A DNA stretch of 64,000 nucleotides, from assembly GCA_016187485.1 (NCBI GenBank), contig JACPJO010000002.1, positions 27,912 through 91,911 of the forward strand, written 5' to 3'. Positions within the stretch are counted from its first letter, which is position 1. Every line of letters begins with the position of its first letter. Source of the DNA: Candidatus Uhrbacteria bacterium. Its GTDB lineage: Bacteria > Patescibacteriota > Patescibacteriia > UBA9934 > UBA10169. Of this stretch, positions 5,082 to 63,900 are shown one piece after another. The notes beneath the pieces were generated by a model that was not told the origin of the DNA, made no database searches, and worked only from the letters and a program-made list of their open reading frames with translations. The translations under genes were made by a program, and so were the position numbers.

Positions 5082-7673
5082 ACCTCCGCTTTATACACGG
5101 CTTCTGTGTCCCCGGAACGTGGAGATGAGATGGAGGGACGGAGGGAAGCGCGTGGTGAACCCAACATGAACTACATCGTAGAACAATCGTTGCGGAAACA
5201 TCACACGCCATAAACCCCCTCTTAGGGTGCGTCTGATGTTCCCGCGATTCGCGGGAATTTTGTTTCACTACAGAGCATTGCTCCGGGCATCGAATCAGTG
5301 CTCTGGCGTGAAGGCCAGACGGAACCTTCACAATTTACACACCAATACAAACAATGTCGCACGCAGAAATGCGTGTGGCGATGGCATGGAAAAAGCCTCA
5401 ACTACAAGGCATGGGGAGTCAGCGTCGGAGTCGTACTTTTTGTACGACGACGAGCTGACGGGGCCCCATAACGCCGTAGATGAGGAATTTTTACATGCCA
5501 GATCTATACAGATAGTGGGTGAAGAGCATAAGGGCAGATGGTGGATGGCTCGACCATAGACGCCGATGAAGGACGTAGCAGCCTGCGATAAGCTTCGGGG
5601 AGGTGGCAAGCAACCTTTGATCCGGAGATCTCCGAATGGGGAAACCCGGTCTGAAGAAGTCAGATCATCCAACACTGAATACATAGGTGTTGGGAGGTTA
5701 CCTGGTGAAGTGAAACATCTCAGTAGCCAGAGGAAAAGAAAAAGATAGCTCGTTGTGTATACGAAGGTTCTCCATTGGGAGCTTTCGTATACAACAACGA
5801 GAACATTCCCCTAGTAGTGGCGAGCGAACGGGGAACAGTCTAAACTTCGTGGATGAAGCGTTGAACAAAGTGGGTATCATTGATATTCATCCGTTTGGCG
5901 TGAAAGGCAAGGGCCGTTGTCCACGGAGGGTTGCAAGATGCGCGCGCGTCTTTCCCTTGAAAGGCGACATGATCGTTGTGTTATAGGAGAATCTGCTGGA
6001 ACGCAGAACCAAAGAGGGCGAACGTCCCGTATCCAAAATATCAACACGACGTGTGGTGCGCATTCTTAAGTACCACGAGACACGAGAAATCTTGTGGGAA
6101 CCTAGCGCGACTATGTGCTAAGACTAAATACGTCTATGGATCGATAGTGAACAAGTACCGCGAGGGAAAGCTGAAAAGAACCCCGGAAGGGGAATGAAAT
6201 AGTTTCTGAAACCATCTGCTTACAAGGAATCGGAGTCCCTCCGTAGCCGCAAGGTGAAGAGGGATGACGGTGTTCCTATTGAAGAATGAGCCAACGAGTG
6301 TGCTGCATGTCGCCGGTTAAGTCCTCCGGGATGAAGCCAGAGTGAAAGCAAGCATTAACGTGCGTCTCTAGCAATGTTCAAGGATGAGTTTCTCATTCTT
6401 GAACATGGCTAGAAGGTGGCATGCACACGACCCGAAACCGGGTGACCTAACCATGACCAGGGTGAAGTCCCGCGAAAGCGGGATGGAGGCCCGAACTCAC
6501 GTGCTGTGCAAAACACGGAGACGAGTTGTGGTTAGCGGAGAAATTCCAATCGAACTCGGTAATAGCTGGTTCTCTCCGAGATAGCTTTAGGGCTAGCGTC
6601 GGTTACAGTCTGTTGGGGGTAGAGCACTGAATGGGACAACCGCCTTCGGGTAGGTGTCCTAACCAAACTCCGAATACCAGCAGATGATCCCGGCAGTCAG
6701 ACGATGGGGGCGAAGCTCCATACGTCGAAAGGGAAACAGCCCAGATCTCAAACTAAGGTCCCAAAATCATCGTTAAGTGTAAAAGGTGGTGAGAAGACTT
6801 ATACAGTCAGGAGGTTGGCTTAGAAGCAGCCATCCTTTAAAGAAAGCGTAACAGCTCACTGATCAAGTTTTCTTGCGCCAAAAATGAATCGGGGCTAAAC
6901 GGTGTACCGAAGTTGAGGATGTCCCGCCTTTGGCGGGACGTGGTAGGAGAGCATTCGTGTCAGCGCTGAAGCCATACTGCGAGGTGTGGTGGAGCGGCAC
7001 GAAGAGAGAATGTTGGCATAAGTAGCAAAAAGACGGGTGAGAACCCCGTCCGCCGCAAACCCAAGGTTTCCACAGCTACGCAAATCGTCTGTGGGTGAGT
7101 CGGGAGCTAAGGCGAGCCCGAAAGGGGTAGTCGATGCACAGCTGGTTAATATTCCAGCACTTCGTTTACGTTCTGATGGGGGGACGTTCCGTGTACCTTC
7201 CTGCGTCCTATGGCTATGACGTCAGGAACTCTGGAGTGGCTTGTAGGAAAATCCGCAAGCCGCAAGCTCCGGGGTTGTCGCAATCTCGGGTTACACCGAG
7301 GGAGAGGAGGGGAAGCGGAACCAAGAAAAGCCTCTAGGGTTAACGTAAACGAACCCGTACCGGAAACCGACACAGGTGGGTGGGCATGAATGTGCCAAGG
7401 CGTACGAGAGAATGATCGTTAAGGAACTAGGCAAAAAAGCGGCCGTAACTTCGGGATAAGGCCTGGTTGCTCCCGGGAGGGAGCGACCCGCAGCGAAAGA
7501 CGTCAAGCGACTGTTTACCAAAAACACAGGTCCCTGCAAAACCGTAAGGTGAAGTATAGGGGCTGATGCCTGGCCAGTGTCCGAACGTTAAGGAAGGGGG
7601 TCATGCCCGCAAGGGCGGCAGCCTTCGACTGAAGCGCGGATGAACGCCGGCGATAACTATAATCGTCCTAAGG

Positions 7674-7929
7674 TTTTCCGTATTTTGGCTAAATTTAGCG
7701 AAAGTACGGAGAAGGACTGGGACGATTACGGTGAGTGGGTAAACAAATGAAGTGCTGCCTCACTCTACAGTAATGTAGAGTTGGTCCAAACATGGCTATT
7801 TGCTGGGAACCAGTTGCCAACTGGGATCAGCAGGGAAGTCCTCCGTGGCGGGGACCCCTCAGAGACTAAACGCCGTGCCCCTGGTGCAATCAGGGTGAAG
7901 ATATAGTCCTCCGTCCAAAGGAAACGGAA
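7674..7929 (+). other. Intervening sequence in 23S at an E. coli L1917-equivalent site (probable small group I intron, no ORF)
   Basis: Conserved CCTAAGGT is separated from AGCGAAATTCC by about 256 nt of non-rRNA sequence. Confidence 0.45.
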
Positions 7930-7949
7930 AGCGAAATTCCTTGTCGGGT

Positions 7950-8656
7950 GAACCATGTTCCTCTGTGGTCGGAGAGAACTTGCCCGAGTATCGTGGTAAC
8001 ATGATACAAGCAATCCAGCTCATAACGGGGAATCCTCAATGAGGAAATCCCGTGGGAAGCCCCGCTAAAGGTGGGGCCCCGTAACGACTGACCCGAAAGG
8101 GGAGGTTCCGCAGGTGCGGGACAACACGCTGGCTCTTCCTGATAAGACCAACCTATGGAGATTAATCCATGGTATGTATCTGGATTCGTCGATGGTGAAG
8201 GGAGCTTTCTCGTTTCCTTTTCTGTTCGTCAAAAGATGACGATGGGAATTGAAGCGAGGCCAAGTTTCACCATCAGCCAACACAAGAGAAGTATAAATGT
8301 GCTAGAGCACATCAAGACATACTTCGGGTGTGGCACGATCCGTTACAACATCCATGATGATACATACAAATATGAAGTGAGAAGTCTGGGAGATCTTCTT
8401 TGGAAGATTATTCCGCACTTCGAGCAGTATCCTCTCAGAACGTTGAAGCAGAAAGACTTTGAAACGTTTCGAGATATTTGTTACCTCATGCACACGCAAC
8501 ACCATCGATGTTCGTCTGGTATTAGACAGATCATTGATGTCGCCTATCAAATGAACAATTTTGGGGCGAGGCGTTATACGAAAGAAGATCTCCTAAAGGT
8601 GGTGGGAAGATGAAGGTATAGTCTGAACATCATGGCAACATGATGACTAACATTGG
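7950..8656 (+). mobile_element. Intervening sequence in 23S at an L1931-equivalent site (probable group I intron) carrying a LAGLIDADG homing-endonuclease gene
   Basis: Conserved TTGTCGGGT is separated from AGTTCCGACCTGCACG by about 707 nt. It contains ORF 8155..8613. Confidence 0.55.
8155..8613 (+). CDS. LAGLIDADG-family homing endonuclease (single-motif, I-CreI-like)
   Basis: N-terminal [13 protein letters not shown] motif, about 150 aa. Lies wholly inside 23S intervening sequence B. Local GC is lower than in the flanking rRNA. Confidence 0.75.
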   Translation: MEINPWYVSGFVDGEGSFLVSFSVRQKMTMGIEARPSFTISQHKRSINVLEHIKTYFGCGTIRYNIHDDTYKYEVRSLGDLLWKIIPHFEQYPLRTLKQKDFETFRDICYLMHTQHHRCSSGIRQIIDVAYQMNNFGARRYTKEDLLKVVGR

Positions 8657-8688
<32 letters not shown>

Positions 8689-9169
8689 GACGACTGTCTC
8701 AACGATCAACTCGGCGAAATTGCAAGAGGAGTGAAGATGCTCCTTACTCGTAGTTAGACGAAAAGACCCCGTGAAGCTTTACTACAACTTGGTATTGGTT
8801 TCAGATTTCGCATGTTGAGCGTAGGTGGGAGCTTCGGCGCCAATGAGACACCACCCTTGCGTTATTTGAAGTCTAACTTCGGACCGTGAATCCGGTTCGA
8901 AGGACAGTATCTGGTGGGTAGTTTGACTGGGGCGGTAGCCTCCCAAAAAGTAACGGAGGCGTTTACAAAGGTTGGCTTAGCGCGGATGGAAATCGCGCTG
9001 AAAGGGCAAACCCACAAGCCAGCTTTACTGCAAGACTGACACGTCGCGCAGTCGCGAAAGCGGAAGTTAGTGATCCGACCGTACGACATAGGACGGCGGA
9101 AGCTCAACGGATAAAAGCTACTCCGGGGATAACAGGCTGATCAGGCCCAAGCGTCCACAGCGACGGCCT

Positions 9170-9210
<41 letters not shown>

Positions 9211-9241
9211 AAGAAGCTCCCAAGGGTTTGGCTGTTCGCCA

Positions 9242-9285
<44 letters not shown>

Positions 9286-10021
9286 GGACAAAACCGCGCT
9301 GTCTATAAATTCGACTATATGCTGGAAACCCTGAATGAGTCTCAACAGGAGTAGAGGCTCAAAGAATCTCACACTACGTGCTATGCTTATTAAATATGGC
9401 ACGTGAAAATGTGTTGAGTGCAGGCAATCAGCAGGGAAGATTACATCGTCTTCAACCGTGGTATATCAGTGGTTTTGTGGATGGGGAAGGAAGCTTTCAT
9501 GTGGCGCTCTATAAAGATGCACACATGAAGACGGGATGGAAAATCATCCCAGAATTCCACGTCTCCCAACGTATAAGCAGTCGCCAAGTTCTTGATAGGC
9601 TTGTGGACTTCTTTCGTTGTGGGTATGTAAAACCAAACCATAGAACAAGTTCTTCCGATTTGACGTACGTATATGTTGTACGGGATCGCGGAGATCTTCT
9701 AAAGAAAATCATCCCTTTCTTTCAGCGGCATAACCTCCAGACGGAGAAAGTAAAAGACTTTCAACTGTTTGCGAGAGTTGTACAGCTGATGGAAAAGGGG
9801 GAACACCGGAACACCAACGGAGTAAAAAAGATTTTCGAGATCGCATACCAGATGAATGGTGGCGGTCGGTATCGACGGAAAAAAATACAAGCGATGTAAA
9901 ACCCTCAGAGACTATATGTCGAATTCCGCCATTTGCGGAAAAGATATAGTCCGAACTGCATGGCGACATGCAGAGAACACAAGAAATTGTGTTCCTCCAC
10001 AATTGTGGAAGTAACATATTG
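9286..10021 (+). mobile_element. Intervening sequence in 23S at an L2593-equivalent site (probable group I intron) carrying a LAGLIDADG homing-endonuclease gene
   Basis: Conserved GTCGTGAGACAGT is separated from TCGGTCTCCTATC...CTAGTACGAGAGGACCGG by about 736 nt. It contains ORF 9378..9899. Confidence 0.55.
9378..9899 (+). CDS. LAGLIDADG-family homing endonuclease
   Basis: [16 protein letters not shown] motif. The probable start is the Met at 9396. About 170 aa, inside 23S intervening sequence C. Confidence 0.75.
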
Positions 10022-10339: not shown

Positions 10340-10447
10340 TCTGGTGACATTTCCGGCAGGGCCACACCCGTTCCCATCTCGAACACGGCCGTTAAGCCTG
10401 TCCGGGCCGATGGTAGTCACATGGCGAGAGTAGGTCGTCGCCAGAAC
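10340..10447 (+). rRNA. rrf: 5S ribosomal RNA
   Basis: CCACACCCGTTCCCATCTCGAACACGG...GCCGATGGTAGT...GAGAGTAGG matches the bacterial 5S consensus. Lies about 40 nt after the 23S 3' end. Confidence 0.85.
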
Positions 10448-18152: not shown

Positions 18153-18950
18153 CTATTGGACAATAATCGTTCCCGTAAATTGCGGATGGTAGCTGTCAAA
18201 GAATGTGTACGTTCCCGGGGTCTTGAATGTCCTTGAGAAGACGATTCCCGCACTCATGGTTCCCGATCCCCAGGAAAGGTCGTCGGATGTCACGGTGTGA
18301 TTGACCGTGTCCAAATTGGTGAAGCGAACGGTCCGGCCTGCCTGGATAGTCGCAAGGATAGGAGTGTAACCGCCTGCACTAATGTTCATGACAACGGGCG
18401 CTTTCAAGTCTTTATCCGTATTGATGTCCGGGACCGACGCCTTTACGCTCGCCGTGTTGTATTGGGAAGAGTCTGTGACATCACTGCTGCGCGTGTAGTT
18501 CGAGAAGAAGCCATCCGGCACGTCATCAATCTGCTTATTCCAGGTGCTTCCAAACAAAGCAATCGCAACGGCTTCGGTAGAGACCCAGTGTAAGGAACCT
18601 CCCCGGCCGATGGCGTAGACTTTCGGGTCCGTATCAATCTTGATCATACGGCTGCCCGGACGGTACGTGACGTTTCCGCCGATCTGAATAGTGCCGAGAT
18701 CGGCATCCGTGAGCCAGTTCACGTCGTTGAAGTTGTTGTACCAGGTAAAGTACGTCTTATCATTTACGAACACGTAACGGAAACCATCTGCCCCGTAGTA
18801 ATAGACGGCAGAACGAGATGTGCCGCGAATGAGCATGCCCGATTGAAGTTGGCTTAGGCTAATCGTAGAAGCGGCGCGCACCGGGACGGCAGGGAGGAGC
18901 AACGAGATACTCGCAAAGAACGCGAATACGCGCACGAGGAGAGATTTCAT
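18153..18950 (-). CDS. Secreted hypothetical protein (cleavable signal peptide)
   Basis: MKSLLVRVFAFFASISLLLPAVPVRA signal peptide. The C-terminal beta-rich region ends ...YTFFDSYHPQFTGTIIVQ, which is weakly cupredoxin-like but has no Cys ligand. Confidence 0.45.
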   Translation of the reverse strand: MKSLLVRVFAFFASISLLLPAVPVRAASTISLSQLQSGMLIRGTSRSAVYYYGADGFRYVFVNDKTYFTWYNNFNDVNWLTDADLGTIQIGGNVTYRPGSRMIKIDTDPKVYAIGRGGSLHWVSTEAVAIALFGSTWNKQIDDVPDGFFSNYTRSSDVTDSSQYNTASVKASVPDINTDKDLKAPVVMNISAGGYTPILATIQAGRTVRFTNLDTVNHTVTSDDLSWGSGTMSAGIVFSRTFKTPGTYTFFDSYHPQFTGTIIVQ

Positions 18951-18978
18951 AGAGATAGTCATAAGTAGGAAAAGTATA

Positions 18979-19647
18979 TCACATTCCAAGCGCCTTTCTC
19001 ATCTCTTCTAGCGCCGTATGTGGATTTCTCCCTGCAAAAATGCTTGAGCTCGCGCAAAAACGGGTGATTCCGGCCTGAAGGAAGCGGAGGATATTTTGGG
19101 CTGTTACCCCCCCGTCGGCGCCAAGCAAGATGTCGGGATAGCGCCGGTGAATTTCCACGACTTTCGCCAAGAGATCATCTTCGTGAATCCCGTGCGCGGG
19201 GTCGCCGATTCCTTGTCCCGAAGCGCCTGGGTGGACGGTCATGAGAAGGAGTTCGTCCAGAAGATGAATGGCGTGGTGCGCTTCCTCGACGGGCGTTTCT
19301 GGATTCAAGGCGAGGCCGGCATCAAGATGCATGCCATGAATCGCTTCGATGATAGGCTCGTGCTGGCGATCGAGTTCGGCGTGGAAGATCACGCGCGAGA
19401 GCCCGGTTACCTCTTCTTTCCATGTGCGTGCGACGGCAAGCGGATTTTCCACCATGAGGTGCAGTTCAAACTGTACAGACGTATCGAGTGATCCTACGGC
19501 GCGCGCGTCGGCCCAACTCATGTGGGGGAAGAGTGTGCCGTCCAACACGTCTACGTGCACCACAGATGCGTAGGCCTCCACGGCACGGAGCTGTGTGACA
19601 AACTGCTCTTTGGATTCGGCAAGAATGGCAGGAAGGATCTCGGTCAT
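18979..19647 (-). CDS. rpe: Ribulose-phosphate 3-epimerase
   Basis: VHVDVLDGTLFPH...HLMVENP...GADGG. The probable start is MTEILPAIL at 19647. Confidence 0.85.
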   Translation of the reverse strand: MTEILPAILAESKEQFVTQLRAVEAYASVVHVDVLDGTLFPHMSWADARAVGSLDTSVQFELHLMVENPLAVARTWKEEVTGLSRVIFHAELDRQHEPIIEAIHGMHLDAGLALNPETPVEEAHHAIHLLDELLLMTVHPGASGQGIGDPAHGIHEDDLLAKVVEIHRRYPDILLGADGGVTAQNILRFLQAGITRFCASSSIFAGRNPHTALEEMRKALGM

Positions 19648-32875: not shown

Positions 32876-34609
32876 ATGAAGTCCAAAACACCAAACTTTG
32901 ATGAGAGGATTGAGGAACTGTTAAAAAAATTGGTGCCAGGCACCAGAGTGTGTAAGAAAACAGGAGAGACTTGGGAGCTTACCCAGGAAGAAATTGAATG
33001 GTGCCGGCATTTTCGTGTACCGCCGTCGGATGTAAGCCCACTCGCACGTCTGCGTATGCTCACGGCCTTTTTTGTGGGCTACCAGTGGTGGAACAATAAA
33101 AGCGCGAAAGATGGGAGGACGCTTGTGAGCTCCACGCATCCGGCGAGTGGTGTGAAGATTCTCCCAGACGAGGAGTGGCTTCAGCAGGACTTTTCTTCTC
33201 TTCGACGACCTATTCATTCGGACACCTCTGTTTTTCGTGTGCTCCAAGAGCTGTCCCGAGAGATCCCCTTTATGGCGTTTCGCAATGCGGTACCGCCAGA
33301 AAACTCCATCTCTACAATCTCCATGGGGGACCAAAACAGTTATTTCATGAACGCTTGTCGATCGAAGAATTCCTTTTTTGGGATGAATGCGCTCGACACG
33401 GAAGATTCTGCAGAAGTTTATCAGTCAGGAAAGATTGTCGGCTCCTACAATGTGGTACACGCCGAGCGTCTTTACCAATGTCGGTTTGTGCAAGAGTCGC
33501 GTGATTGTATGAGCAGCGCATTTCTTTTTGATTGTCGAGACTGCGAGCATTGTTTTATGGCGACGAACAAACGACGGGCAAAATATGTTTGGAAGAATGA
33601 GCAGCTTTCGCGGCAGGAGTATGAAAAACGTATAGCCGAAGTGGACCTGTCTTCCCGCGTGCGGCTTGAGGCGTACAAAACAGAGTTTCTGGAGTTGATA
33701 CGGACACAAGGAATCTGGCCCGAGAACTTCAACGAGAAAGCGGAACAAAGCTCTGGAGAGTATTTACAGGAAGTCACCAACTGCCATTTTTGCTATAACA
33801 ACAATTATGGGTGCCGTGACCAGCTTTGGTGCGCGTACATGTTTCATGAAACATTCCAAAATGCATTCGACGTCGGGCTTTTCTACGGAACGAACAACTG
33901 CTGGGGTTGTTCAACGGGGTCGCGAAGCGCGAACTGTCTCTTCAGTTATCTTGTCGTAAATTGCCAACGCGTGGAATACTCCATGCATTGTTACGATTGC
34001 GAGAACTGTTTTGGATGCGTGGGGCTTAACCGCAAGAAGTTTCACATCTTCAATACGCCATGTACGGAAGAGGAGTATTATCGGTTGCTCGATGAGATAA
34101 AGTGCGGGATGCTTGAGCGACGCGAATACGGGGAATTTCTTCCCGCCACTCTTTCGCCTACGCGCTTTTTGGATTCCGGCGCTGCGCTCTTTCTTTTGGC
34201 AGATGAGGTAGCGGGGCGGCAACTTGGTGCATTAGAGTATGCGCCTGAATCTGCAGGGGCAAGTGGAGACCCCTCGATTGTCCTTTTACCGGTGGGTGAT
34301 ATTCCCGACAGCATTTCCGATCCCTCGGTGGAGGCGCTTTCCGGCAAGCTCTTTTTTGACGAGTCTCTCGATCGACGTTTTACTTTCCTTAAACCAGAGG
34401 TGGAGTTTTATCGCGCGATGAAGATCGGTCCGCCTCGTGATCACTTTATTGCTCGTGTGCGCGATCTTAGCTTTCGCGCAAATTCAGGTGTATTTGAGGA
34501 CACCATCTGCGCCAAATGCTCACGGAATATTCTCGTCACGAAGAATAAAACATTTCCTTCACGCACTATATATTGCCGCGCATGTTACCAAGACACTCTT
34601 TCCGCGTAA
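32876..34609 (+). CDS. Cysteine-rich cytoplasmic protein with repeated CxxC/CxC modules, unknown function
   Basis: 577 aa with no signal peptide. Recurring units include ...CRFVQESRDCMSSAFLFDCRDCEHCF..., NCHFCYNNNYGCRDQLWCAYMF, NCWGCSTGSRSANCLFSYLVVNCQRVEYSMHCYDCENCFGCVGL and C-terminal CAKCSRN...YCRACYQ. Confidence 0.5.
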   Translation: MKSKTPNFDERIEELLKKLVPGTRVCKKTGETWELTQEEIEWCRHFRVPPSDVSPLARLRMLTAFFVGYQWWNNKSAKDGRTLVSSTHPASGVKILPDEEWLQQDFSSLRRPIHSDTSVFRVLQELSREIPFMAFRNAVPPENSISTISMGDQNSYFMNACRSKNSFFGMNALDTEDSAEVYQSGKIVGSYNVVHAERLYQCRFVQESRDCMSSAFLFDCRDCEHCFMATNKRRAKYVWKNEQLSRQEYEKRIAEVDLSSRVRLEAYKTEFLELIRTQGIWPENFNEKAEQSSGEYLQEVTNCHFCYNNNYGCRDQLWCAYMFHETFQNAFDVGLFYGTNNCWGCSTGSRSANCLFSYLVVNCQRVEYSMHCYDCENCFGCVGLNRKKFHIFNTPCTEEEYYRLLDEIKCGMLERREYGEFLPATLSPTRFLDSGAALFLLADEVAGRQLGALEYAPESAGASGDPSIVLLPVGDIPDSISDPSVEALSGKLFFDESLDRRFTFLKPEVEFYRAMKIGPPRDHFIARVRDLSFRANSGVFEDTICAKCSRNILVTKNKTFPSRTIYCRACYQDTLSA

Positions 34610-39506: not shown

Positions 39507-39534
39507 GGCCCCGCATGAAGCGAGGCCTGGGGCC

Positions 39535-40013
39535 GGGAAACGTATAAGCCGAATTCTGTTCTCCCATCACTCTTTGCAGAGCGTTAGGAGAGGTGACTAT
39601 CTATCTTGACTGCTCATTGCTGAACAGCTCCGCATGATCCTTGCGAACCATGCACGCGAGCGACCAAATTTGCTCTTGCACCGAAAAGGGTTTACCACAC
39701 CTCTGCGTCACCGCAGGGCGAATCGCGTAGCCCCGAAGGACATCGCGAAACTTTTCACGTTTCCCCCTACATAGCTCCGTGAGGAGCGACGTGGGGTAGT
39801 ATTGTCTCTGTGACACTTTCCCTAGAGTTCTCTCTGAGCCCGAAGAGCAATCTCTCCGGCAAAGCCGGATCCGGCTTTGCCGGACAGCTCCTCGATTCCA
39901 GATTTCCTCTGGCCGCCGTTAGCGGCTTTTCTTGTCTTCCTCTCTTGCGAAAGGGTAGGGTGTTCGGACTTTCCTCTCCCGCTTTTAACAGGAGCAGTCA
40001 CCGCGTTTCCTGG
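39535..40013 (-). ncRNA. rnpB: RNase P RNA (bacterial type, with insertions)
   Basis: Minus strand carries GGAAACG (P1 5') ...GAGAGGAAAGTCCGAAC (P4 5' strand, universal GGAAAGTCCG)... and ...GAGAACAGAATTCGGCTTATACGTTTCC (P4 3' strand ACAGAA-CGGCTTA plus P1 3'). It fills a 550-bp gap with no ORF between wbaP and trpS. Confidence 0.65.
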
Positions 40014-43117: not shown

Positions 43118-43204
43118 TGGTGCGGATGGAGAGACTCGAACTCTCAAGCCATTGCTGGCACGGGCTTCTGAGGCCCGCGCGTATACCAATTCCGCCACAT
43201 CCGC
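43118..43204 (-). tRNA. tRNA-Leu (anticodon CAG), long variable arm, CCA encoded
   Basis: Reverse complement GCGGATG TG GCGG AATTGGTAT ACGC G CGGGC CTCAGAA GCCCG ... CATCCGC A CCA. Confidence 0.85.
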
Positions 43205-45544: not shown

Positions 45545-46318
45545 GTGTTCTTCCATGCGTCGTGTCGCGCGATCCTCCATATGATACCATGGTACCACAT
45601 GGAGGATTCCAAGCGCTGGCTCCCGATTGTCGTGACGGGCATCTTGCTTTTGCTTGCGGGATTGTTTGTGCTTCGCGTCGTCGTTTTTTACAGCCAGATT
45701 CGCAAAGGCGACGACCAACAGCGTTCTTTCGGCGCGTCCGCCGAGCTCACACGCTCGCCCGCGCTGGCGGCAGCGATCCGTTCCACTCCCGCAGATGAAG
45801 TGTATAGCGTGGAGGACGACGATGACCCCATGCTTGGGGGCAAGGACGCACGGCTCACTATTGTGGAGTTTGCCGACTTTGGCTGCCCGTACTCGCGCAA
45901 GGCCTCGTCATCCATGCGCGCCCTTGCACTTACCTACGGCGAGAACATCCGCTATATCTATCGCGATTTTCCGATCACCGAGATTCATCCCGACGCGTTT
46001 TTAGCGGCGCAGGCAGGACAATGTGCCAACGAGCAGGATAAGTTCTGGGTCTATCACGACGCACTCTACCAACACCAAGAGGACCTTTCTCGCGCGGCGC
46101 TCCGTTCGTATGCACAGGCGGTAGGGATGGATGTCGGAGCATTTGATCGTTGTCTTGCCAGTGGGCGCTACCGCCAGGAAGTGGAAAAAGATTACGCGGA
46201 AGGTGTGGCGGCGGGCGTCGTGGGAACACCCACATTCTTTTTCAATGGGCGCCGTGTGGAAGGAGCCATCCCCCTCGAGATTCTTCGTTCGCTCATAGAC
46301 ACTTTTCTTAAGGTATGA
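45545..46318 (+). CDS. DsbA-family thiol:disulfide oxidoreductase (membrane-anchored)
   Basis: N-terminal TM, then thioredoxin fold with CPYS active site (EFADFGCPYSRKA) and ...GTPTFFFNGRRVEG. The stop overlaps the start of the next gene (ATGA). Confidence 0.6.
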   Translation: MFFHASCRAILHMIPWYHMEDSKRWLPIVVTGILLLLAGLFVLRVVVFYSQIRKGDDQQRSFGASAELTRSPALAAAIRSTPADEVYSVEDDDDPMLGGKDARLTIVEFADFGCPYSRKASSSMRALALTYGENIRYIYRDFPITEIHPDAFLAAQAGQCANEQDKFWVYHDALYQHQEDLSRAALRSYAQAVGMDVGAFDRCLASGRYRQEVEKDYAEGVAAGVVGTPTFFFNGRRVEGAIPLEILRSLIDTFLKV

Positions 46319-47646
46319 GAGCGCTCATCTCTCTGCTTTTCTTTCTCTCCTTCGCCCTGCCCGTGCAGGCGGCGGATCCGGCAGGGACTTGCCGGTGTTG
46401 GTGCGGGTCGACCGCGGGCGCTATTGAGTATGGCGTGTATCGTCCGGATGAAACGGAGTGTTTGAACCTCTGCAAGAGCATCAACCAGAGGTACTTGGGT
46501 TGTGTTGCGGAGGAAGACATTTCTCCTTTGGAGAACCTACGCTGTTGGTCTGCGCAAGAGTGCACACAAACCAATGCGGCGACGGGGAATCCGTCGGGAA
46601 TTTTTGATGATACACAGCCAACCGAATGCATGCCCGGATTCCGTTACTGTTTTCCCTATCCCGAACCGATTCCTCTTAGCGTGCATTTTGGGGACAAGAC
46701 GTTTGTTTATGGGATTGGCGGGTACACCGCGACCGTGTATCGCTGGCTTATAGGCGCTGCAGCTGTCTTTGCTGTCATCATGCTCATGGCAGGCGGCATA
46801 CAATATATGCTGGCGGGCGGGAGCGGGAACGTAAAAGAAGCGAAGGATCGCATGAAAAACGCCATCATCGGTTTTGTCATTCTTCTTTCAAGCTATCTCT
46901 TATTGCTCACGGTAAATCCGCAAACGTTATCCTTGCGCTTACCGTCTTTGCCGAAAATCCGCCCGCTCATCGTCGCAGACGGGAACCAGTCATGCGAGGC
47001 GTACCAGAATGCCAAATACCACGTGGAGGTAAACGGGAGCCAATTTTTCAGCGGGCTGTCTTGTGGCAGAAAAGGATCGGTAACGAAAGGACCCGACGGC
47101 GCGCAGCTTTCAGAGGAGACATCGTGTTTTTTCCGCGCGTGTACGCAAGCATCCATGACGGCAGCGGGGGAGACCTGTGCGATCGATACGACCGAAGAGA
47201 CCGGCTCGTGCATGACATGCGCGGATATTACGGCTGGCCAGACGGCAACACCGGGAGTGCTTGCCTCTCCCTCGTTGTGCAGCGGTTTATCGCAACTCGC
47301 CGGAGGATCGGGAAGCCGAGAACTTTGCCTCTATGTCCCCGCCGCTCCCGAGGAGAAGTTTCCGGACGGGTATTGCGGAAGTTTGACGCTCGACTGCAAC
47401 GCCATTGAAGACTGCGAAGATTACGGAGACCTCGTCCCGTACAATTCTGTGGTAGAACAGGTGGTGTCTACGCATACAGCCGTTACTATTGCCGCTGACC
47501 TTGAGGGCCTTTCAGAAAAAACGGGGCGCGAGGGAGAACCGCTTGCCGGTGTGTGCACAGACGATCCGTGCAACCTTGCGGCGGAAGGAAAACGCTGTGG
47601 CGTGCGCGTGACAGGGAATGATGTTTCGTGCGTCACAAATCCCTGA
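46315..47646 (+). CDS. Secreted Cys-rich protein with central two-TM hairpin (TrbC/VirB2-pilin-like core)
   Basis: Signal peptide MRALISLLFFLSFALPVQA. The Cys-rich N-domain has about 12 Cys. Two hydrophobic helices are separated by a short basic loop (WLIGAAAVFAVIMLMAGGIQYMLAGGSGNVKEAKDRMKNAIIGFVILLSSYLLLLTV). The Cys-rich C-domain has about 16 Cys. Confidence 0.45.
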   Translation: MRALISLLFFLSFALPVQAADPAGTCRCWCGSTAGAIEYGVYRPDETECLNLCKSINQRYLGCVAEEDISPLENLRCWSAQECTQTNAATGNPSGIFDDTQPTECMPGFRYCFPYPEPIPLSVHFGDKTFVYGIGGYTATVYRWLIGAAAVFAVIMLMAGGIQYMLAGGSGNVKEAKDRMKNAIIGFVILLSSYLLLLTVNPQTLSLRLPSLPKIRPLIVADGNQSCEAYQNAKYHVEVNGSQFFSGLSCGRKGSVTKGPDGAQLSEETSCFFRACTQASMTAAGETCAIDTTEETGSCMTCADITAGQTATPGVLASPSLCSGLSQLAGGSGSRELCLYVPAAPEEKFPDGYCGSLTLDCNAIEDCEDYGDLVPYNSVVEQVVSTHTAVTIAADLEGLSEKTGREGEPLAGVCTDDPCNLAAEGKRCGVRVTGNDVSCVTNP

Positions 47647-47727
47647 GAGGGACCGGCTCTTGCCAGAAAGAAAATTGTTTGTTATCGTTGCGGGCGATTT
47701 TCGTTTGCCTTTTGTTTTCCTTGTTAC

Positions 47728-50648: not shown

Positions 50649-52382
50649 TTGCTATTTTCCCCTCTTATGAAAAAGACATTTCTCGCCGTTATTCTTGTGG
50701 CCATCTTGCTGCCCGCGGGCATTGGTCGTGCAGATAACCCCACTTGGCAGGTTTTAACTGCCACGGATGTATGGGATCGTGGAACACACCGCGTGGAGCG
50801 TTTGGATCTCCCGCGCATTGTGGAAGGTCCCCTCAACTTGGGTGACAATGTGGTTGTACAGACTGTTGCTTCCAGTTGTGTGAGTGCTGCCTGCGATGAA
50901 CGCGATGCCTATATTCTTCGCAACGGCTCGGCCATCCGCGTGCCTAACGTGCCCAAGAGCGCGCTTTCGCTTGCAGAGTTTAATGCGAACGGCGGGCGTG
51001 TTGTGTGGGCGGTGCCGGTGCCTTCGGACACGGGTCGTTGGGATGTGATTGAACTGGATCTTGCCAGCGGACAAAAAGTAAAAATCGCCGGGAACTTTTT
51101 CCTCGGCAATGTGGAAACCATGAAAGTTCGTGTGGCGGACGGAGAGATTTTCCTGAATCCTACGTTCATTTCTGGCGGAAATACCTTCAAGAACGCTGGG
51201 GTGTTCCGCTATGATCGTGCGCGCGGCGATGTGGTGAATGTTACACAGCGCTTCAACGCTCAGCACGAGGAACTTCTCGACGTGGATCTTGCCAACAACC
51301 GTATTCTCACGAAGATGTCGTTTGCCTCTGGGGAGAAACAACTTTGGCTTACCAAAATCACCTCGGAATATTTGAATGGCGAAGCCAACCGTATCATCGG
51401 CACATGGACGCCGGCGCATGAGGACCTTGTAGGCGGACACTTCCGTCCAGATGGTTCGGTCGAATACTTCCGCATGTACACGCGCAGCCTTTCTTCGACG
51501 AACGGGGTCGTGGATACATTCCAGACAACGGCGCTTGGCGAGCAGATGTCGTGGTACCGTCCGGCAAGCGATGCCGTCACTATTTCTGGTGACAACATGG
51601 TGTGGATCAACAATGATAATGAGCTTACCGTTTCCAATGAACAGTTCGGCACGATCCGTGTGGGCACTATTGGTCCGCGCGCGCCGCGTGTCGTTGGGAC
51701 AGATGTGTACTTTGCCACGCCCGAGGGCATGGGAATGGTCTATCGTCTCAAAGATGGAGTGAGCACGCTTCTTGATTACATGCCGACGGATCGCTTCAAA
51801 GTGGCGATGGTGGGTGTGGACGAGGCGGGAACAGTTCGTTTTGGCTCTACAAAGAACCCCGACGAGTCCATTTCGATGGGCGTGGGAACGGATGCGGCCC
51901 TTTCTGATGAGCGCCATGTCTATTGGCGCGGCGTGGACGGAGCGATCTACGAAGCAACGCTCTCGACAGATCCAGGCGTAAGCACAACGGGAAAGATGGA
52001 GGCCGTGAAAGTGGAGAACAATCCGACGGTGTTTCTGACCGATGGCGTGAATCGCTGGACCTTCACGAATGAGGATGTCTATCGTACGTGGTTTGACTCT
52101 ATGGACACGGTAAAGACGATCTCTGCGACACGACTTGCATACTTGCGTGATCGCGGCACGGCACAATTTGCGCCGGGCACAAAAGTAAAAGCAAAAGATG
52201 ACGCGCGTCTGTATGTGGTCGGCCGGGACAATAAGGCCCACTGGATCGTGAACGAGACGGTTGCCGATGCCGTGTTTGGATCCTCGTGGAACAAGGACGT
52301 CAAAGAAATTGATACCGCGGCGATGGTTTCCTACCAACAGGGCCGCACCATTGATGACGCTCTCGATATTGACCTGATCTAA
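50649..52382 (+). CDS. Secreted hypothetical protein (577 aa)
   Basis: Signal peptide MKKTFLAVILVAILLPAGIGRA. Beta-rich with no recognised motif. A candidate promoter TTGACA-17-TATTTT sits at about 50631..50659. Confidence 0.45.
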   Translation: MLFSPLMKKTFLAVILVAILLPAGIGRADNPTWQVLTATDVWDRGTHRVERLDLPRIVEGPLNLGDNVVVQTVASSCVSAACDERDAYILRNGSAIRVPNVPKSALSLAEFNANGGRVVWAVPVPSDTGRWDVIELDLASGQKVKIAGNFFLGNVETMKVRVADGEIFLNPTFISGGNTFKNAGVFRYDRARGDVVNVTQRFNAQHEELLDVDLANNRILTKMSFASGEKQLWLTKITSEYLNGEANRIIGTWTPAHEDLVGGHFRPDGSVEYFRMYTRSLSSTNGVVDTFQTTALGEQMSWYRPASDAVTISGDNMVWINNDNELTVSNEQFGTIRVGTIGPRAPRVVGTDVYFATPEGMGMVYRLKDGVSTLLDYMPTDRFKVAMVGVDEAGTVRFGSTKNPDESISMGVGTDAALSDERHVYWRGVDGAIYEATLSTDPGVSTTGKMEAVKVENNPTVFLTDGVNRWTFTNEDVYRTWFDSMDTVKTISATRLAYLRDRGTAQFAPGTKVKAKDDARLYVVGRDNKAHWIVNETVADAVFGSSWNKDVKEIDTAAMVSYQQGRTIDDALDIDLI

Positions 52383-57671: not shown

Positions 57672-57789
57672 CTTTATATTTTTCAAACGAACGCGCCGAT
57701 CGTACCAGCACGATTGACGATTGTAAAGATTTCCCCTAAAGTCGCAAAACCGGCCTTTCACAACTACTTCGGTCCTTGCGACCGAACAG

Positions 57790-60225
<2,436 letters not shown>

Positions 60226-60254
60226 CTCGCATCTGCGTGATCGTTCTTCTCTAC

Positions 60255-60803
60255 TCAACCGGCTTCCCCGGTTGTTTCGTTTTCTATCTCAATAATGGTC
60301 ACGGGAACATCATTCCAGTTGAATTGGGCTTTGAATGTTGCGTTTTCGTTACCCCCCACCCACACACGCCAATTCATAGTCGGAAGCAATCTGGCACATT
60401 CATCTGATTTCCCTGGCGTTGTATCGAAGAAAAGGAGGATTTCATTCTTATCTTCACTTACTTTTGATGTCACATGTCGATCAATGCACGTGCCATCGAT
60501 AGGGATAGAACCTTCCAGATAATGTTGCTTCTTATCAGCTTGCCACAAATGCTTCAATATAATCTCACTTGGGTGGTACAACGACTGGTAGTTCTCTGGG
60601 GCCGGGGGAGGGAAGGGGGCCTTTTGGGCTGGTTTCGGTTCGGGCTTCCAGATAGTGAAGTTGAATATGATGATCAAAACAGCAAGACAAATAAGGATGA
60701 GGCGGAAAATTACTTGGGGCGTTGGTCGTGTCATATTGAGAAAGAGTGTATTACAGGAAGACACATGTGGCAAAACAAAAACCTGTTTTCCACAGATTTC
60801 CAC
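60255..60803 (-). CDS. Hypothetical membrane-anchored protein
   Basis: An alternative start at the internal Met (MTRPTPQVIFRLILICLAVLIIIF, TM anchor). Pro-rich linker, then a small globular region. The gene is lower in GC than its surroundings. Confidence 0.4.
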   Translation of the reverse strand: MEICGKQVFVLPHVSSCNTLFLNMTRPTPQVIFRLILICLAVLIIIFNFTIWKPEPKPAQKAPFPPPAPENYQSLYHPSEIILKHLWQADKKQHYLEGSIPIDGTCIDRHVTSKVSEDKNEILLFFDTTPGKSDECARLLPTMNWRVWVGGNENATFKAQFNWNDVPVTIIEIENETTGEAG

Positions 60804-60993
60804 AGTCGAAACTCACGTGTTTTTTAGGGTCGTGCTATACTCCCTCCATACAACATAGGTACCTATGCATCTAACGAATGCAGTCTATTCAGTGTATTTT
60901 ACGTCGTAAGTCGATACGGCGGCCTTTTGTTAAGTAATTTTAAAATCGAAGTCGCTCATATACGCGTATAGCGAGTTCGAGAACATGTGAATT

Positions 60994-63900
60994 ATGAGTC
61001 AATACGTTAAATCAGTACTTTACGGGAAGGGAGGATGGCTGGCGCTTACGACGGTTACGGCCGTCGTGCTTGCCGCCACGGTGTCCCTTGTGACCCAGAC
61101 GACGCTGTTTTCAAGAGCGGCGATCTCTGGCCTCACGGTGGATCCGCTTATTACGACAGCGAACCGCGGTATCGTGGCAAGTTCACTGCAAGTTCCGGTG
61201 GTCGGGATTGATGTAGTTGGAAGCGCGGGAGAGTCTATTGATTACGTAGATGTCTCTGTTGATGATGCAGGCGGTGGCGAGTTTACCTACGCTACTGATC
61301 TTGCTGCTCTGGCTTCTGGTGTGAATGAGGCCTCAGGTGTTGCGCTCTATGTTGACGACGGAAGCTCATCTGGCCAGTTTGATTCCACAGATAGCATTGT
61401 GAGTTCATCTGCACTGGAAGACAACGGCGCTGGTGAAGTGCGTGTAAACGTCACCGCATCGCTCCCCGCGAATGACACGGGGGCAAACAGCGGCGATGAC
61501 TTTTATATTGTCATTCGATCTGGTGCCGATGACGCTGACACGGATGCCGGGGATGACTTTGATGTCAAAGTAGACAACGGTGACCTCGTGTTTAGCGACG
61601 CAAGCACGAATGGTGCAGAGGTTGCAGACACAACGAACCTTATCTTTGACCCGACGGCTCCGACTGTCTCAAGCCGAACGACTGTTGATGCCGATGATGA
61701 TGGATTTATCGATGCGGTGGATGTCGTGTTTACAGATGCGCAGTCGAGCGGGTTGAATGATGATTTCTCCGGTTTGACGATTGACGTTGCTGGTTACTCC
61801 GGCGAGTCAGTCGGGACGGGGAGTACGTCGGGTGACCTTACTATTCGTGTAACAGTGACAGAGCAAACATCCCCAAACTTCGATACGGATGCGATCCCGA
61901 CTGTACAAGTGACGGCAAACACGACACTTTCAGATCTCACTGTTGGCCGCGTCCGTGAAACGACATCAAGTAGCATTACTACATCAAACGGAAACTTACA
62001 CGCGACAGGCGCCGCAGTAGCTTCAACAGATGGGGCTGCGCCTGCCATTGTGGGTGTCGCGACAGATGATACGGATGGCAACGGCACGGTGGATCGGGTG
62101 ACGCTAACATTCTCCGAGCCCATTGATACCGTTGACTCTGGTGGTGCTGTAGACGGGTTTAATGCGTTGGAGGGTCTGGAAAATAGTTGTGCGATTGCCA
62201 ACCAAGATCTTAGCGCTAGCGACGATACAGAGTCCATGGATATTACAGTGTCTAGCTGTACTGCGGGCGATACAGCCATCACCACAACGATTAACTATGA
62301 ACAGGATGGCGCTTCGACGATCTTTGATAATGCTGCAAGTCCAATTGAAATGGAGGATGAAGAGACGACAACGAATGAACGTGATAACGCTCCGCCGGCC
62401 ATCCTTAGTTCAACCACGGACGATACGGATGGCGATGGTACCGTAAATCGCGTCACGCTCGCCTTCTCCGAGACCGTTGATATTGCTGATGGGAACGCGG
62501 GAGACGGCTTTAATGGTCTTGAGGGACTCGAGAATAGCTGTACGATTGCCAACCAAGACTTGGCTTCCAACAGTGTATCCTCCATCGCCATTACCGTTTC
62601 CGGCTGTACAGCTAGCGATACCTCTATTACCACAACGATCAATTACGAACAGGATGGTACGAACACTATTCTTGATGAGTCTGCGTCTGCAAACGAGATG
62701 GATGATGAGGAAGCATCTGGTTCAGAGGTTGACGGTGCCCCGCCTGCGATTCTTTCTATCACGACCGATGACACCTCCGGAGACGGTACAGTGGATCAAC
62801 TGACCGTGGCCTACTCGGAACAGGTGGATATTGTGGACACCAACGCTGGTGCAGACGGTTTCCCTGGTTTTGACGGCGTTACGGACTCCTGTGCCATCAG
62901 CAACCAAGATGAAACGGCAAGCAATGTTACGTCTTCAGTACTTACGGTAGGAAGCTGTACGGCGAGCGATACGTCCATATTAGTAGAACTTTCGTACAAC
63001 TCCGGCGACGCCAACACAAGCATTATTGATAATGCCTCCGTTGAGATGGATGATAACGAAACGGTAGCGACCGGTACCGATGGTGCTCCCCCAGCCATTC
63101 TTTCCATCACCACAGATGACACCTCCGGAGACGGTACAGTGGATCAACTTACCGTGGCCTACTCCGAACAAGTTGATATTGTGGATACAGGAACAGGCAC
63201 AGACGGCTTTGGCGGCTTCGATGGCCTCACGGACTCCTGTGCCATCAGCAACCAAGATGAGACGGCGAGTAATACGACATCTTCGGTTCTCACTGTTGCA
63301 AGCTGTACGGCGAGCGACACGTCCATCCTCGTAGAGCTTGCCTACAATGCAGGCGATGCAACAACAAGCATTATCGACAATGCTTCCGTGCAGATGGATG
63401 ATGATGAGACGATCGCTACAGGTATTGATGGGGCTCCGCCGGCGATTCTCTCGTCGACCTCTGATGACACGAATGGGAACGGCAACGTGGACCAGATTAT
63501 TCTGGTGTACTCCGAGCAAGTAGACATCACAGATGGTGCCGCCGGGGATGCGTTTCCAGGTGTCACGTTCTCGGACAGCTGTGTTGCGGCCAATGCAGAT
63601 TATGCGGCAAATAACGCCACAAGCAGCACGATTACTGTTTCCAGCTGTACATCAAACGACACATCTATCACGGTTGATCCCACCTATGCGGCCGCCTCTG
63701 GGCAGATCCAAGACAACGCAGCAACTCCGGTGGAGATGGACAACGGAGAGACAGTGACAGGTATAGATAACGCTCCGCCCGCCTTTATCTCGTCGACCTC
63801 CGATGACACGGATGGAAACGGCAACGTGGACCAGATCACCATCGTTTACTCCGAAGCTGTAGACATCACGGATGGTTCTGGTGCCGATGCTTTCCCAGGC

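Follow-up and report, generated by a model that had tools for sequence, protein, structure and literature searches.

A monothiol DsbA-like protein paired with a cysteine-rich, VirB2-type hairpin protein in Candidatus Uhrbacteria

Why would a DsbA-like protein that lacks the second cysteine of its active site be encoded in overlap with a partner from the most cysteine-rich subfamily? The question arises in a 64,000-nucleotide (nt) stretch of Candidatus Uhrbacteria DNA (GenBank assembly GCA_016187485.1, contig JACPJO010000002.1, positions 27,912 to 91,911; hereafter the window), where a gene for a membrane-anchored member of the DsbA/MdbA family runs into a gene for a 443-amino-acid (aa) protein with 26 cysteines and a pilin-type helical hairpin, here called the hairpin protein. 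NCBI lists the second gene, HYW18_00830, under a metagenome-assembled Candidatus Uhrbacteria genome. An earlier, sequence-only reading had suggested that the two are a dedicated DsbA-like oxidoreductase and its substrate, an unusual surface or pilus-like protein. The analysis described here favors, with moderate confidence, a translationally coupled folding pair, in which a monothiol DsbA serves as isomerase or holdase for a hairpin-anchored, disulfide-rich surface protein that is itself probably an accessory of a secretion system or a host-contact factor.

The upstream protein matches the Pfam families Thioredoxin_4 (PF13462, E 2.3e-29) and DSBA (PF01323, E 3.2e-23), which gives it a thioredoxin fold with the DsbA helical insertion. 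Its closest solved relatives are 3gyk, C. diphtheriae MdbA (4pwo/4pwp, E ~6e-13), and BdbD. These closest relatives in the PDB are CxxC enzymes, and the lone CPFS form among them, 7uno, is presumably a version of the 7unn protein engineered for trapping. The active site of the window protein reads CPYS, so that the nucleophilic Cys96 is kept while the resolving position is a serine. The DsbA-family fold named by the sequence-only reading holds, but the label of an ordinary oxidoreductase does not, as a monothiol site cannot act as an ordinary disulfide donor or classical oxidase. Cys96 is invariant in 60 of 60 aligned homologues; Cys142 and Cys185 are also conserved and probably form a structural disulfide. 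The same alignment finds a TPT core in every one of the commonest variants of the GTPTF loop, which we take to be the cis-Pro loop of the thioredoxin fold. An N-terminal transmembrane (TM) anchor would place the catalytic domain outside the cell, and Lys and Arg residues upstream of the anchor would be consistent with the positive-inside rule.

A natural CxxS site is rare for bacterial DsbA proteins. In a neighbor-joining tree the CxxS genes of this family form one deep clade, with a single CPYC member (locus L008) nested inside it. The serine is always TCN-encoded, and TCG, TCT, TCC, and TCA are all used across the clade, which indicates that it is ancient and under selection rather than an assembly error. 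The type of active site also follows the cysteine load of the partner. Among 29 distinct CxxS pairs the hairpin protein has a median of 26.5 cysteines and the visible downstream gene is uvrA, whereas the 23 distinct CxxC pairs have a median of 16 cysteines, with radA downstream in 13 and uvrA in one, again L008.

The downstream gene starts in the ATGA overlap with the dsbA-like stop codon that had been pointed out from the sequence, and it encodes a protein with a predicted signal peptide, MRALISLLFFLSFALPVQA, which would be cut following VQA and before AD. The cysteine count had first been put at about 28 and is 26, but the proposed arrangement of two Cys-rich domains around a hairpin is correct, with 10 cysteines before it (residues 26-112) and 16 after it (residues 227-439). 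At 5.9% of residues, the cysteine content is far above chance, the median in the window being 1.0%. Hydropathy places hydrophobic helices at ~141-168 and ~182-202 with a Lys- and Arg-rich loop between them, GSGNVKEAKDRMK, and AlphaFold2 models helices at 133-170 and 173-200 with a predicted local distance difference test score (pLDDT) above 90. The model of the N-terminal ectodomain has a pLDDT mostly >85 and contains strands (residues 26-42) as well as a helix (46-55); this domain combines a CxCxC strand with a CxxxC helix, and its 10 cysteines are conserved at 83-97%. To judge from the Cys-rich flanks, the positive-inside rule, and the presence of a signal peptide, both termini are predicted to lie outside and the loop inside. 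The C-terminal domain gave no Pfam match and no structural neighbor, and it is more likely a binding than a catalytic domain. Two ideas were set aside: an AcrA-like adaptor fold, an artefact of Foldseek (probability <0.15), and a reading of the C-terminal domain as a diverged VanY or M23 hydrolase, for which there was no Pfam signal and no conserved His/Asp/Glu constellation.

The hairpin is assigned to the T4SS_pilin family (PF18895), which matches the whole protein at residues 137-193 with an E value of 2.7e-10 and 40.6 bits against a cut-off of 26.6, and the isolated hairpin with an E value of 1.1e-11 and 45.1 bits. All 17 family hairpins that were scanned alone match the same family. The likeness originally noted, in the string GGIQYML...FVILL (residues 160-191), was to the TrbC/VirB2 pilins (PF04956). 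A pilin family it is, but PF04956 itself comes second and below threshold, with no match to the full window protein at E<=1, and E 0.089 and 13.4 bits against a cut-off of 27.9 for the hairpin alone. Relatives reach E 2.3e-5 and 0.0036 with PF04956, and it is the next-best family for 13 of the 17 isolated hairpins (best E 2.3e-5). The NCBIfam pilin-like conjugal transfer family Mbov_0395 also matches (E 3.7e-6), under its cut-off. The motifs Y..Y, GG.QYM, AK.R, and T.NP are common to the window hairpin and to hairpin proteins whose genes adjoin VirB4 in other Patescibacteria. Neither sequence nor profile searches with the hairpin protein recovered a pilin or any other relative from the PDB. 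Judged by its sequence, the hairpin is a genuine member of the Patescibacterial VirB2-like family (PMC12102498; PMC12857230). The protein that carries it is not a small, hairpin-only one, as the hairpin accounts for ~70 of 443 aa; small PF18895 members for comparison are the proteins of 104-151 aa in locus L013.

Word-indexed searches for homologues gave only 6 and 4 proteins, and the family was therefore delimited by an exhaustive profile search of representatives. This returned 28,728 at E<=1e-3, mostly via the hairpin, and 265 at E<=1e-30; most of the top 150 matched over their full length (430-600 aa). The complete architecture is found in at least 265 clusters. Each of the 26 cysteine positions is a cysteine in 81-99% of 150 representatives clustered at 50% identity. 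In a 114-sequence alignment 16 cysteines are invariant, although the mean column identity there is just 14%. Close relatives of the hairpin protein are already named "pilin" by NCBI. Three distant hairpin proteins stand apart (L080:5660-8539, L086:9740-11704, and L085:9599-11209), with 30-72 cysteines and, in one case, 959 aa; they show weak matches to Dickkopf_N and DUF7107, are flanked by two conserved Cys-containing genes, and have a CxxC DsbA three to four genes upstream.

The pairing of the two genes extends well beyond the window. The same DsbA-like gene precedes, by 1 nt, the gene for a homologue of the hairpin protein that is 43% identical, and in L006 and L008-L012, too, the hairpin gene directly follows a DsbA-like gene. 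Another 86 loci came from scans of genomes and metagenomes, the latter with a 10-sequence query. Counted over distinct members that open their run and are preceded by 800 bp of sequence or more, 51 of 61 Cys-rich relatives (at least 10 cysteines) directly follow a DsbA-like gene and 10 do not, against 4 and 7 of the 11 Cys-poor ones (fewer than 10). This bears out the expectation that the pair would be conserved together. The intergenic gap in homologues is mostly -4 to +7 nt. Three genomic contexts recur. Context A, that of the window, reads solute-binding protein SBP5 (-), SecG (-), dsbA, hairpin protein, and uvrA; context B begins with clpB and continues, after intervening genes, with a 408-aa protein, dsbA, one to three hairpin proteins, radA, and recG (-); in context C the hairpin proteins are Cys-poor, belong to a VirB4 cluster, and come without dsbA. 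The same order of dsbA and hairpin gene in two unrelated neighborhoods speaks against mere synteny. The N-terminal domains of contexts A and B have in common only the CxC strand and the CxxxC helix.

The relatives in these contexts connect the window protein to type IV secretion. On the complete 1.0-Mb chromosome OZ246408.1, a context A locus (L008) lies at 178-200 kb, and a secretion cluster at 242-264 kb holds an M23 peptidase, two large proteins, PrgI, a TraC-like protein, VirB4, a ComF-like protein, RecG, and RadA. A VanY-domain hairpin protein, a DsbA with a CSAC site, and a 408-aa protein come after this cluster, and this second module is ~6 kb from VirB4, PrgI, and the TraC-like gene. 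The cluster layout recurs in a Uhrbacteria genome of the same study batch, where the hairpin protein bears an Amidase_2 domain and a DsbA is again present. This agrees with a published report that places the secretion loci of class ABY1 with comF, recG, and radA (PMC12102498). Hairpin proteins of context B also carry M23, VanY/M15, M15_4, NlpC/P60, or SLT plus GDSL domains, and VanY is present on some of those in context C. Such hairpin-hydrolase fusions usually lie near or beside VirB4 (L009-L012, L054, L056, L063, L077, L084, L094:18227-19549, and L097:18058-19581), and a fusion of T4SS_pilin to a hydrolase was not found described in the literature searched. Sequence comparison makes the window protein firmly a paralogue of these secretion-linked hairpin proteins. 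Their C-terminal domain is a variable cargo, a place taken here by the 16-Cys domain. The hydrolase domains argue for a hairpin-anchored carrier of ectodomains rather than a simple pilin. As a separate observation, OZ246408.1 (L008/L094) is titled "uncultured Gammaproteobacteria", yet it has the gene order of the Uhrbacteria window, and its VirB4 shares 83% identity with that of a contig filed by NCBI under the Patescibacteria group (L062); the taxonomic label is probably wrong.

A folding pair of this kind could work as follows. The DsbA/MdbA-family protein would be held in the membrane facing outward, with its nucleophilic cysteine alone. The hairpin protein would be exported, lose its signal peptide, and remain in the cytoplasmic membrane by its PF18895 hairpin, with the loop in the cytoplasm and two ectodomains displayed outside, stabilized by up to 13 disulfides among the 10 and 16 conserved cysteines. 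While the ectodomains are leaving the Sec translocon, Cys96 would attack substrate disulfides to form transient mixed disulfides, and the DsbA-like protein would then either shuffle bonds as an isomerase or hold the substrate as a holdase until the native pattern is reached. It would donate no disulfide itself; oxidizing equivalents might come from, for example, a CxxC DsbA paralogue or oxygen. By analogy with the secretion-linked modules, the mature protein at the cell envelope would probably be an accessory of a secretion system or a host-contact factor. A role in attachment, which had also been proposed, is a reasonable guess only. Precedents for the chemistry are the CxxS mutants of protein disulfide isomerase (PDI), Eug1p, and ERp44, thioredoxin-fold proteins with isomerase or holdase activity; monothiol CxxS proteins support isomerization, or thiol-mediated retention and assembly, of Cys-rich clients. 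The likeness, a single nucleophilic active-site cysteine, is an analogy of mechanism only, as these are eukaryotic proteins of the endoplasmic reticulum that use PDI-type domains, whereas the window protein has a DsbA fold.

Several observations weigh against this reading. The CPYC site of L008, within the CxxS clade, indicates that a resolving cysteine is not incompatible with this substrate. A monothiol DsbA could also serve otherwise, e.g., as a covalent partner, a reductant, or a sensor. Among the ~40 open reading frames (ORFs) of the window scanned against Pfam there is no VKOR, DsbB, or second DsbA. The VirB4, VirB6, and other secretion genes by which the sequence-only reading might have been strengthened did not appear: profile searches of the 64-kb window found no homologue of VirB4, PrgI, TraC-like protein, RadA, RecG, or ClpB, and profile and Pfam scans of its ORFs found no VirB6 or other type IV secretion gene. 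The nearest Uhrbacteria VirB4 among >8000 VirB4 matches, MBI2475530, is ~9,000 accession numbers away from MBI2484682 and thus belongs to a different genome, so that none is assigned to the genome of the window. Finally, the model of the C-terminal domain has a pLDDT of 78, and its apparent lack of a known fold could partly be model error.

The absence of secretion genes within 64 kb would also be accommodated if the hairpin is only an anchor of pilin ancestry, and the protein a surface receptor, adhesin, or envelope protein that is folded by its own DsbA independently of any type IV secretion system (T4SS). The neighborhood suits this explanation, being of a housekeeping kind and syntenic across relatives (SecG, the solute-binding protein, UvrA, ribosomal protein L19, and RluD), as do the few conserved non-Cys residues in the C-terminal domain and its lack of an apparent catalytic constellation. 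However, the hairpin, including Y..Y, GG.QYM, and T.NP, is conserved as in the VirB4-adjacent proteins, beyond what a plain anchor needs, and the closest paralogous module lies inside a secretion neighborhood. An anchor unconnected with secretion is unlikely, although it is more probable than the explanations that follow.

Somewhat less probable again is a polymerizing pilin, extracted from the membrane by a T4SS encoded elsewhere into a VirB2-type filament decorated with two disulfide-rich domains, which corresponds to the pilus-like structural protein of the sequence-only reading. PF18895 passes its threshold with TrbC/VirB2 as second match, the topology is VirB2-like with both ends out and the basic loop in, and pili in Patescibacteria are considered plausible in the literature. 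In the 43 kb of OZ246408.1 examined, moreover, there is no small pilin near VirB4, and the two large DsbA-linked proteins are the only hairpin proteins. On the other hand, the mature protein is ~424 aa against ~70-130 aa for known VirB2 pilins, and published pilus structures suggest that an ectodomain of ~110 + 240 aa on each subunit would be hard to fit into the tight VirB2 lattice. The peptidoglycan hydrolases on the same scaffold in homologues suit an anchor better than a fiber subunit. The gene is also outside any secretion cluster, and the literature shows no pilus yet for any Patescibacterial T4SS.

A bolder form of the same idea is improbable enough to be offered as speculation: the VirB2-like component of the T4SS in Uhrbacteria-type Patescibacteria (class ABY1) would be, in place of a small pilin, a set of large, cargo-carrying hairpin proteins assembled by the secretion system into a decorated host-piercing or host-binding filament, with the monothiol DsbA as a subunit-specific mixed-disulfide chaperone. 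If so, hydrolases would be the cargo in one paralogue and a 13-disulfide module the cargo here, possibly in a disulfide-linked polymer, and the monothiol DsbA would hand subunits over in a manner analogous to ERp44 or to the chaperones of chaperone-usher systems.

The suggestion that the Cys-rich protein is instead a redox partner, relaying electrons through its many cysteines in place of DsbB or VKOR, is rejected as very improbable. It draws on the adjacency of the two genes and on the lack of VKOR and DsbB in the window, and quinones and respiratory chains are mostly missing in Patescibacteria. A CxxS DsbA, however, has no disulfide that needs regeneration, and the 26 cysteines sit in two globular ectodomains with scaffold-like conservation rather than in short loops near the membrane. 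There are just two TM helices, nothing points to a cofactor site, and in paralogues the C-terminal domain is replaced by hydrolases. That the adjacency is an inherited gene order without functional coupling can hardly be right and is likewise rejected: synteny among relatives does extend over the entire RNase J-RluD block, but the order recurs in context B, the genes overlap or are 1-7 nt apart, the active-site type co-varies with the cysteine load, and the Cys-poor hairpin proteins of VirB4 clusters have no DsbA gene.

The folding pair is best placed among known systems by taking its two halves in turn. Patescibacterial pilins of the PF18895 family are known to be widespread and often near virB4, and the essential pilin array of Ca. 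Southlakia epibionticum shares the hairpin domain, the signal peptide, and the phylum with the window protein. The described pilins are small and often in arrays, whereas in the window protein the hairpin is preceded by ~110 aa and followed by 240 aa, and 26 cysteines are conserved. Unlike them, the window protein is also encoded away from secretion genes and coupled to a DsbA-like gene. No mention of DsbA, thioredoxin, or ectodomain fusions was found for Patescibacterial pilins in the literature searched. The likeness to TrbC/VirB2 consists of two hydrophobic helices, a short basic loop, and both termini outside; the window protein is much larger, its hairpin stays below the PF04956 threshold, and it gives no hint of cyclization or acetylation. 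TrbC/VirB2 proteins also come from Gram-negative systems, while the host of the window protein has a single membrane. The secretion-linked paralogues resemble the VirB1- and PrgK-type cell-wall hydrolases of single-membrane T4SSs in being membrane-anchored hydrolases beside virB4, as in Gram-positive conjugation, but their anchor is a VirB2-like hairpin, and the window protein itself is without a recognizable hydrolase domain.

For the DsbA-like half, the closest parallel is the MdbA/DsbA of Actinobacteria (C. diphtheriae MdbA, 4PWO), which is likewise a membrane-anchored, outward-facing DsbA fold. MdbA folds pilins such as FimA, so that a disulfide catalyst for a surface-fiber protein is the idea common to both. 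MdbA has a CxxC site and is reoxidized by VKOR, whereas the CPYS type of site in the window is otherwise seen in engineered trapping mutants (CPFS in 7uno). An MdbA-like family enriched in this radiation has been reported to have CxxC in 92% of cases and VKOR as its most frequent neighbor, and type IV pilus pilins were guessed to be its substrates (Meheust et al., bioRxiv 10.1101/335083). The partner of the window protein is instead a VirB2-like hairpin protein, and neither the CxxS clade nor a VirB2-like partner of DsbA was found in the literature searched.

Both building blocks, the DsbA-like protein and the T4SS_pilin hairpin, are thus already known. What is new relative to that literature is the conserved architecture of an N-terminal Cys domain, a VirB2-like hairpin, and a 16-Cys domain; its obligatory pairing with dsbA; and the conserved natural CxxS, in contrast to the secretion-linked CxxC paralogues, which accompany hydrolase-bearing hairpin proteins. 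In the sole genetically tractable Patescibacterium, type IV secretion genes and "pilins" are essential. In a large lineage, the pilin hairpin would be a scaffold for big extracellular domains with a DsbA-family catalyst of their own. For isomerase against oxidase function, the CxxS catalyst found in the most Cys-rich subfamily is a natural test case, and the small, self-contained pair lends itself to heterologous expression. Annotation would also be refined, as such genes are now labeled "pilin" or "hypothetical protein".

The coordinates of the features are collected in Table 1. The longest dsbA-like ORF (45545-46318, +) begins at GTG 45545, but in five other assemblies of this organism the independently called gene begins at ATG 45599, which is more probably the true start. 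The terminator-like and promoter-like sites downstream of the pair weakly suggest that the two genes form their own two-gene transcription unit.

Table 1. Features of the dsbA-like and hairpin-protein genes, in window coordinates.
Feature	Position	Strand	Remarks
DsbA/MdbA-like thioredoxin-fold gene	45599..46318	+	239 aa; Pfam matches and gene calls elsewhere
N-terminal membrane anchor of the DsbA-like protein, WLPIVVTGILLLLAGLFVLRVVVFYS	45617..45694	+	Hydropathy, coordinates
CPYS active-site motif (TGC CCG TAC TCG)	45884..45895	+	Monothiol CxxS, not CxxC
GTPTF loop, presumed cis-proline substrate-binding loop	46223..46237	+	TPT core in homologues; cis-Pro identity from fold knowledge
ATGA overlap of dsbA-like stop and hairpin-protein start	46315..46318	+	Sequence read directly
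Hairpin-protein gene	46315..47646	+	443 aa, 26 Cys, T4SS_pilin domain; NCBI HYW18_00830, MBI2484682.1
Predicted Sec-type signal peptide, residues 1-19	46315..46371	+	Hydropathy and AxA-type site
N-terminal ectodomain, residues 20-132	46372..46710	+	10 conserved Cys; Cys conservation, AlphaFold2
VirB2-type helical hairpin, residues 133-202	46711..46920	+	PF18895 match, AlphaFold2; TM1, loop GSGNVKEAKDRMK, TM2, TVNP motif
C-terminal ectodomain, residues 203-443	46921..47643	+	16 conserved Cys; without recognizable family or fold
Promoter-like site	47660-47688		Between the pair and uvrA; consensus scan only
Terminator-like stem-loop, then T-run to 47718	47690-47708	+	Between hairpin-protein gene and uvrA; consensus scan only

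Other features of the window deserve brief mention. A 577-aa secreted protein without a Pfam or NCBIfam match (50649-52382, +) is conserved downstream of uvrA in context A; its family also occurs near context B loci, and a shorter paralogue in the window (18153-18989, -) ends in a Cupredoxin_1 domain. Another ORF of 577 aa (32876-34609, +) has 26 cysteines (4.5%), no Pfam match, and no obvious signal peptide. The region 57736-63519 contains an 840-aa ORF without a Pfam match, in a part of the window where GC content at 58-60 kb is 0.615 against ~0.54 elsewhere; it is followed by three small minus-strand ORFs, two of them clearly paralogous and one with 13 cysteines in 179 aa. The 23S rRNA gene (5518-9317) contains a group I intron (Rfam match at 7731-7928), LAGLIDADG-type ORFs lie at 8155-8613 and 9378-9899, and the 5S rRNA gene is at 10340-10446; there is no 16S rRNA in the window. 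Genes for RNase P RNA (39529-40013, -) and tRNA-Leu(CAG) (43118-43204, -) lie just upstream of the syntenic block, and the window has eight tRNA genes.

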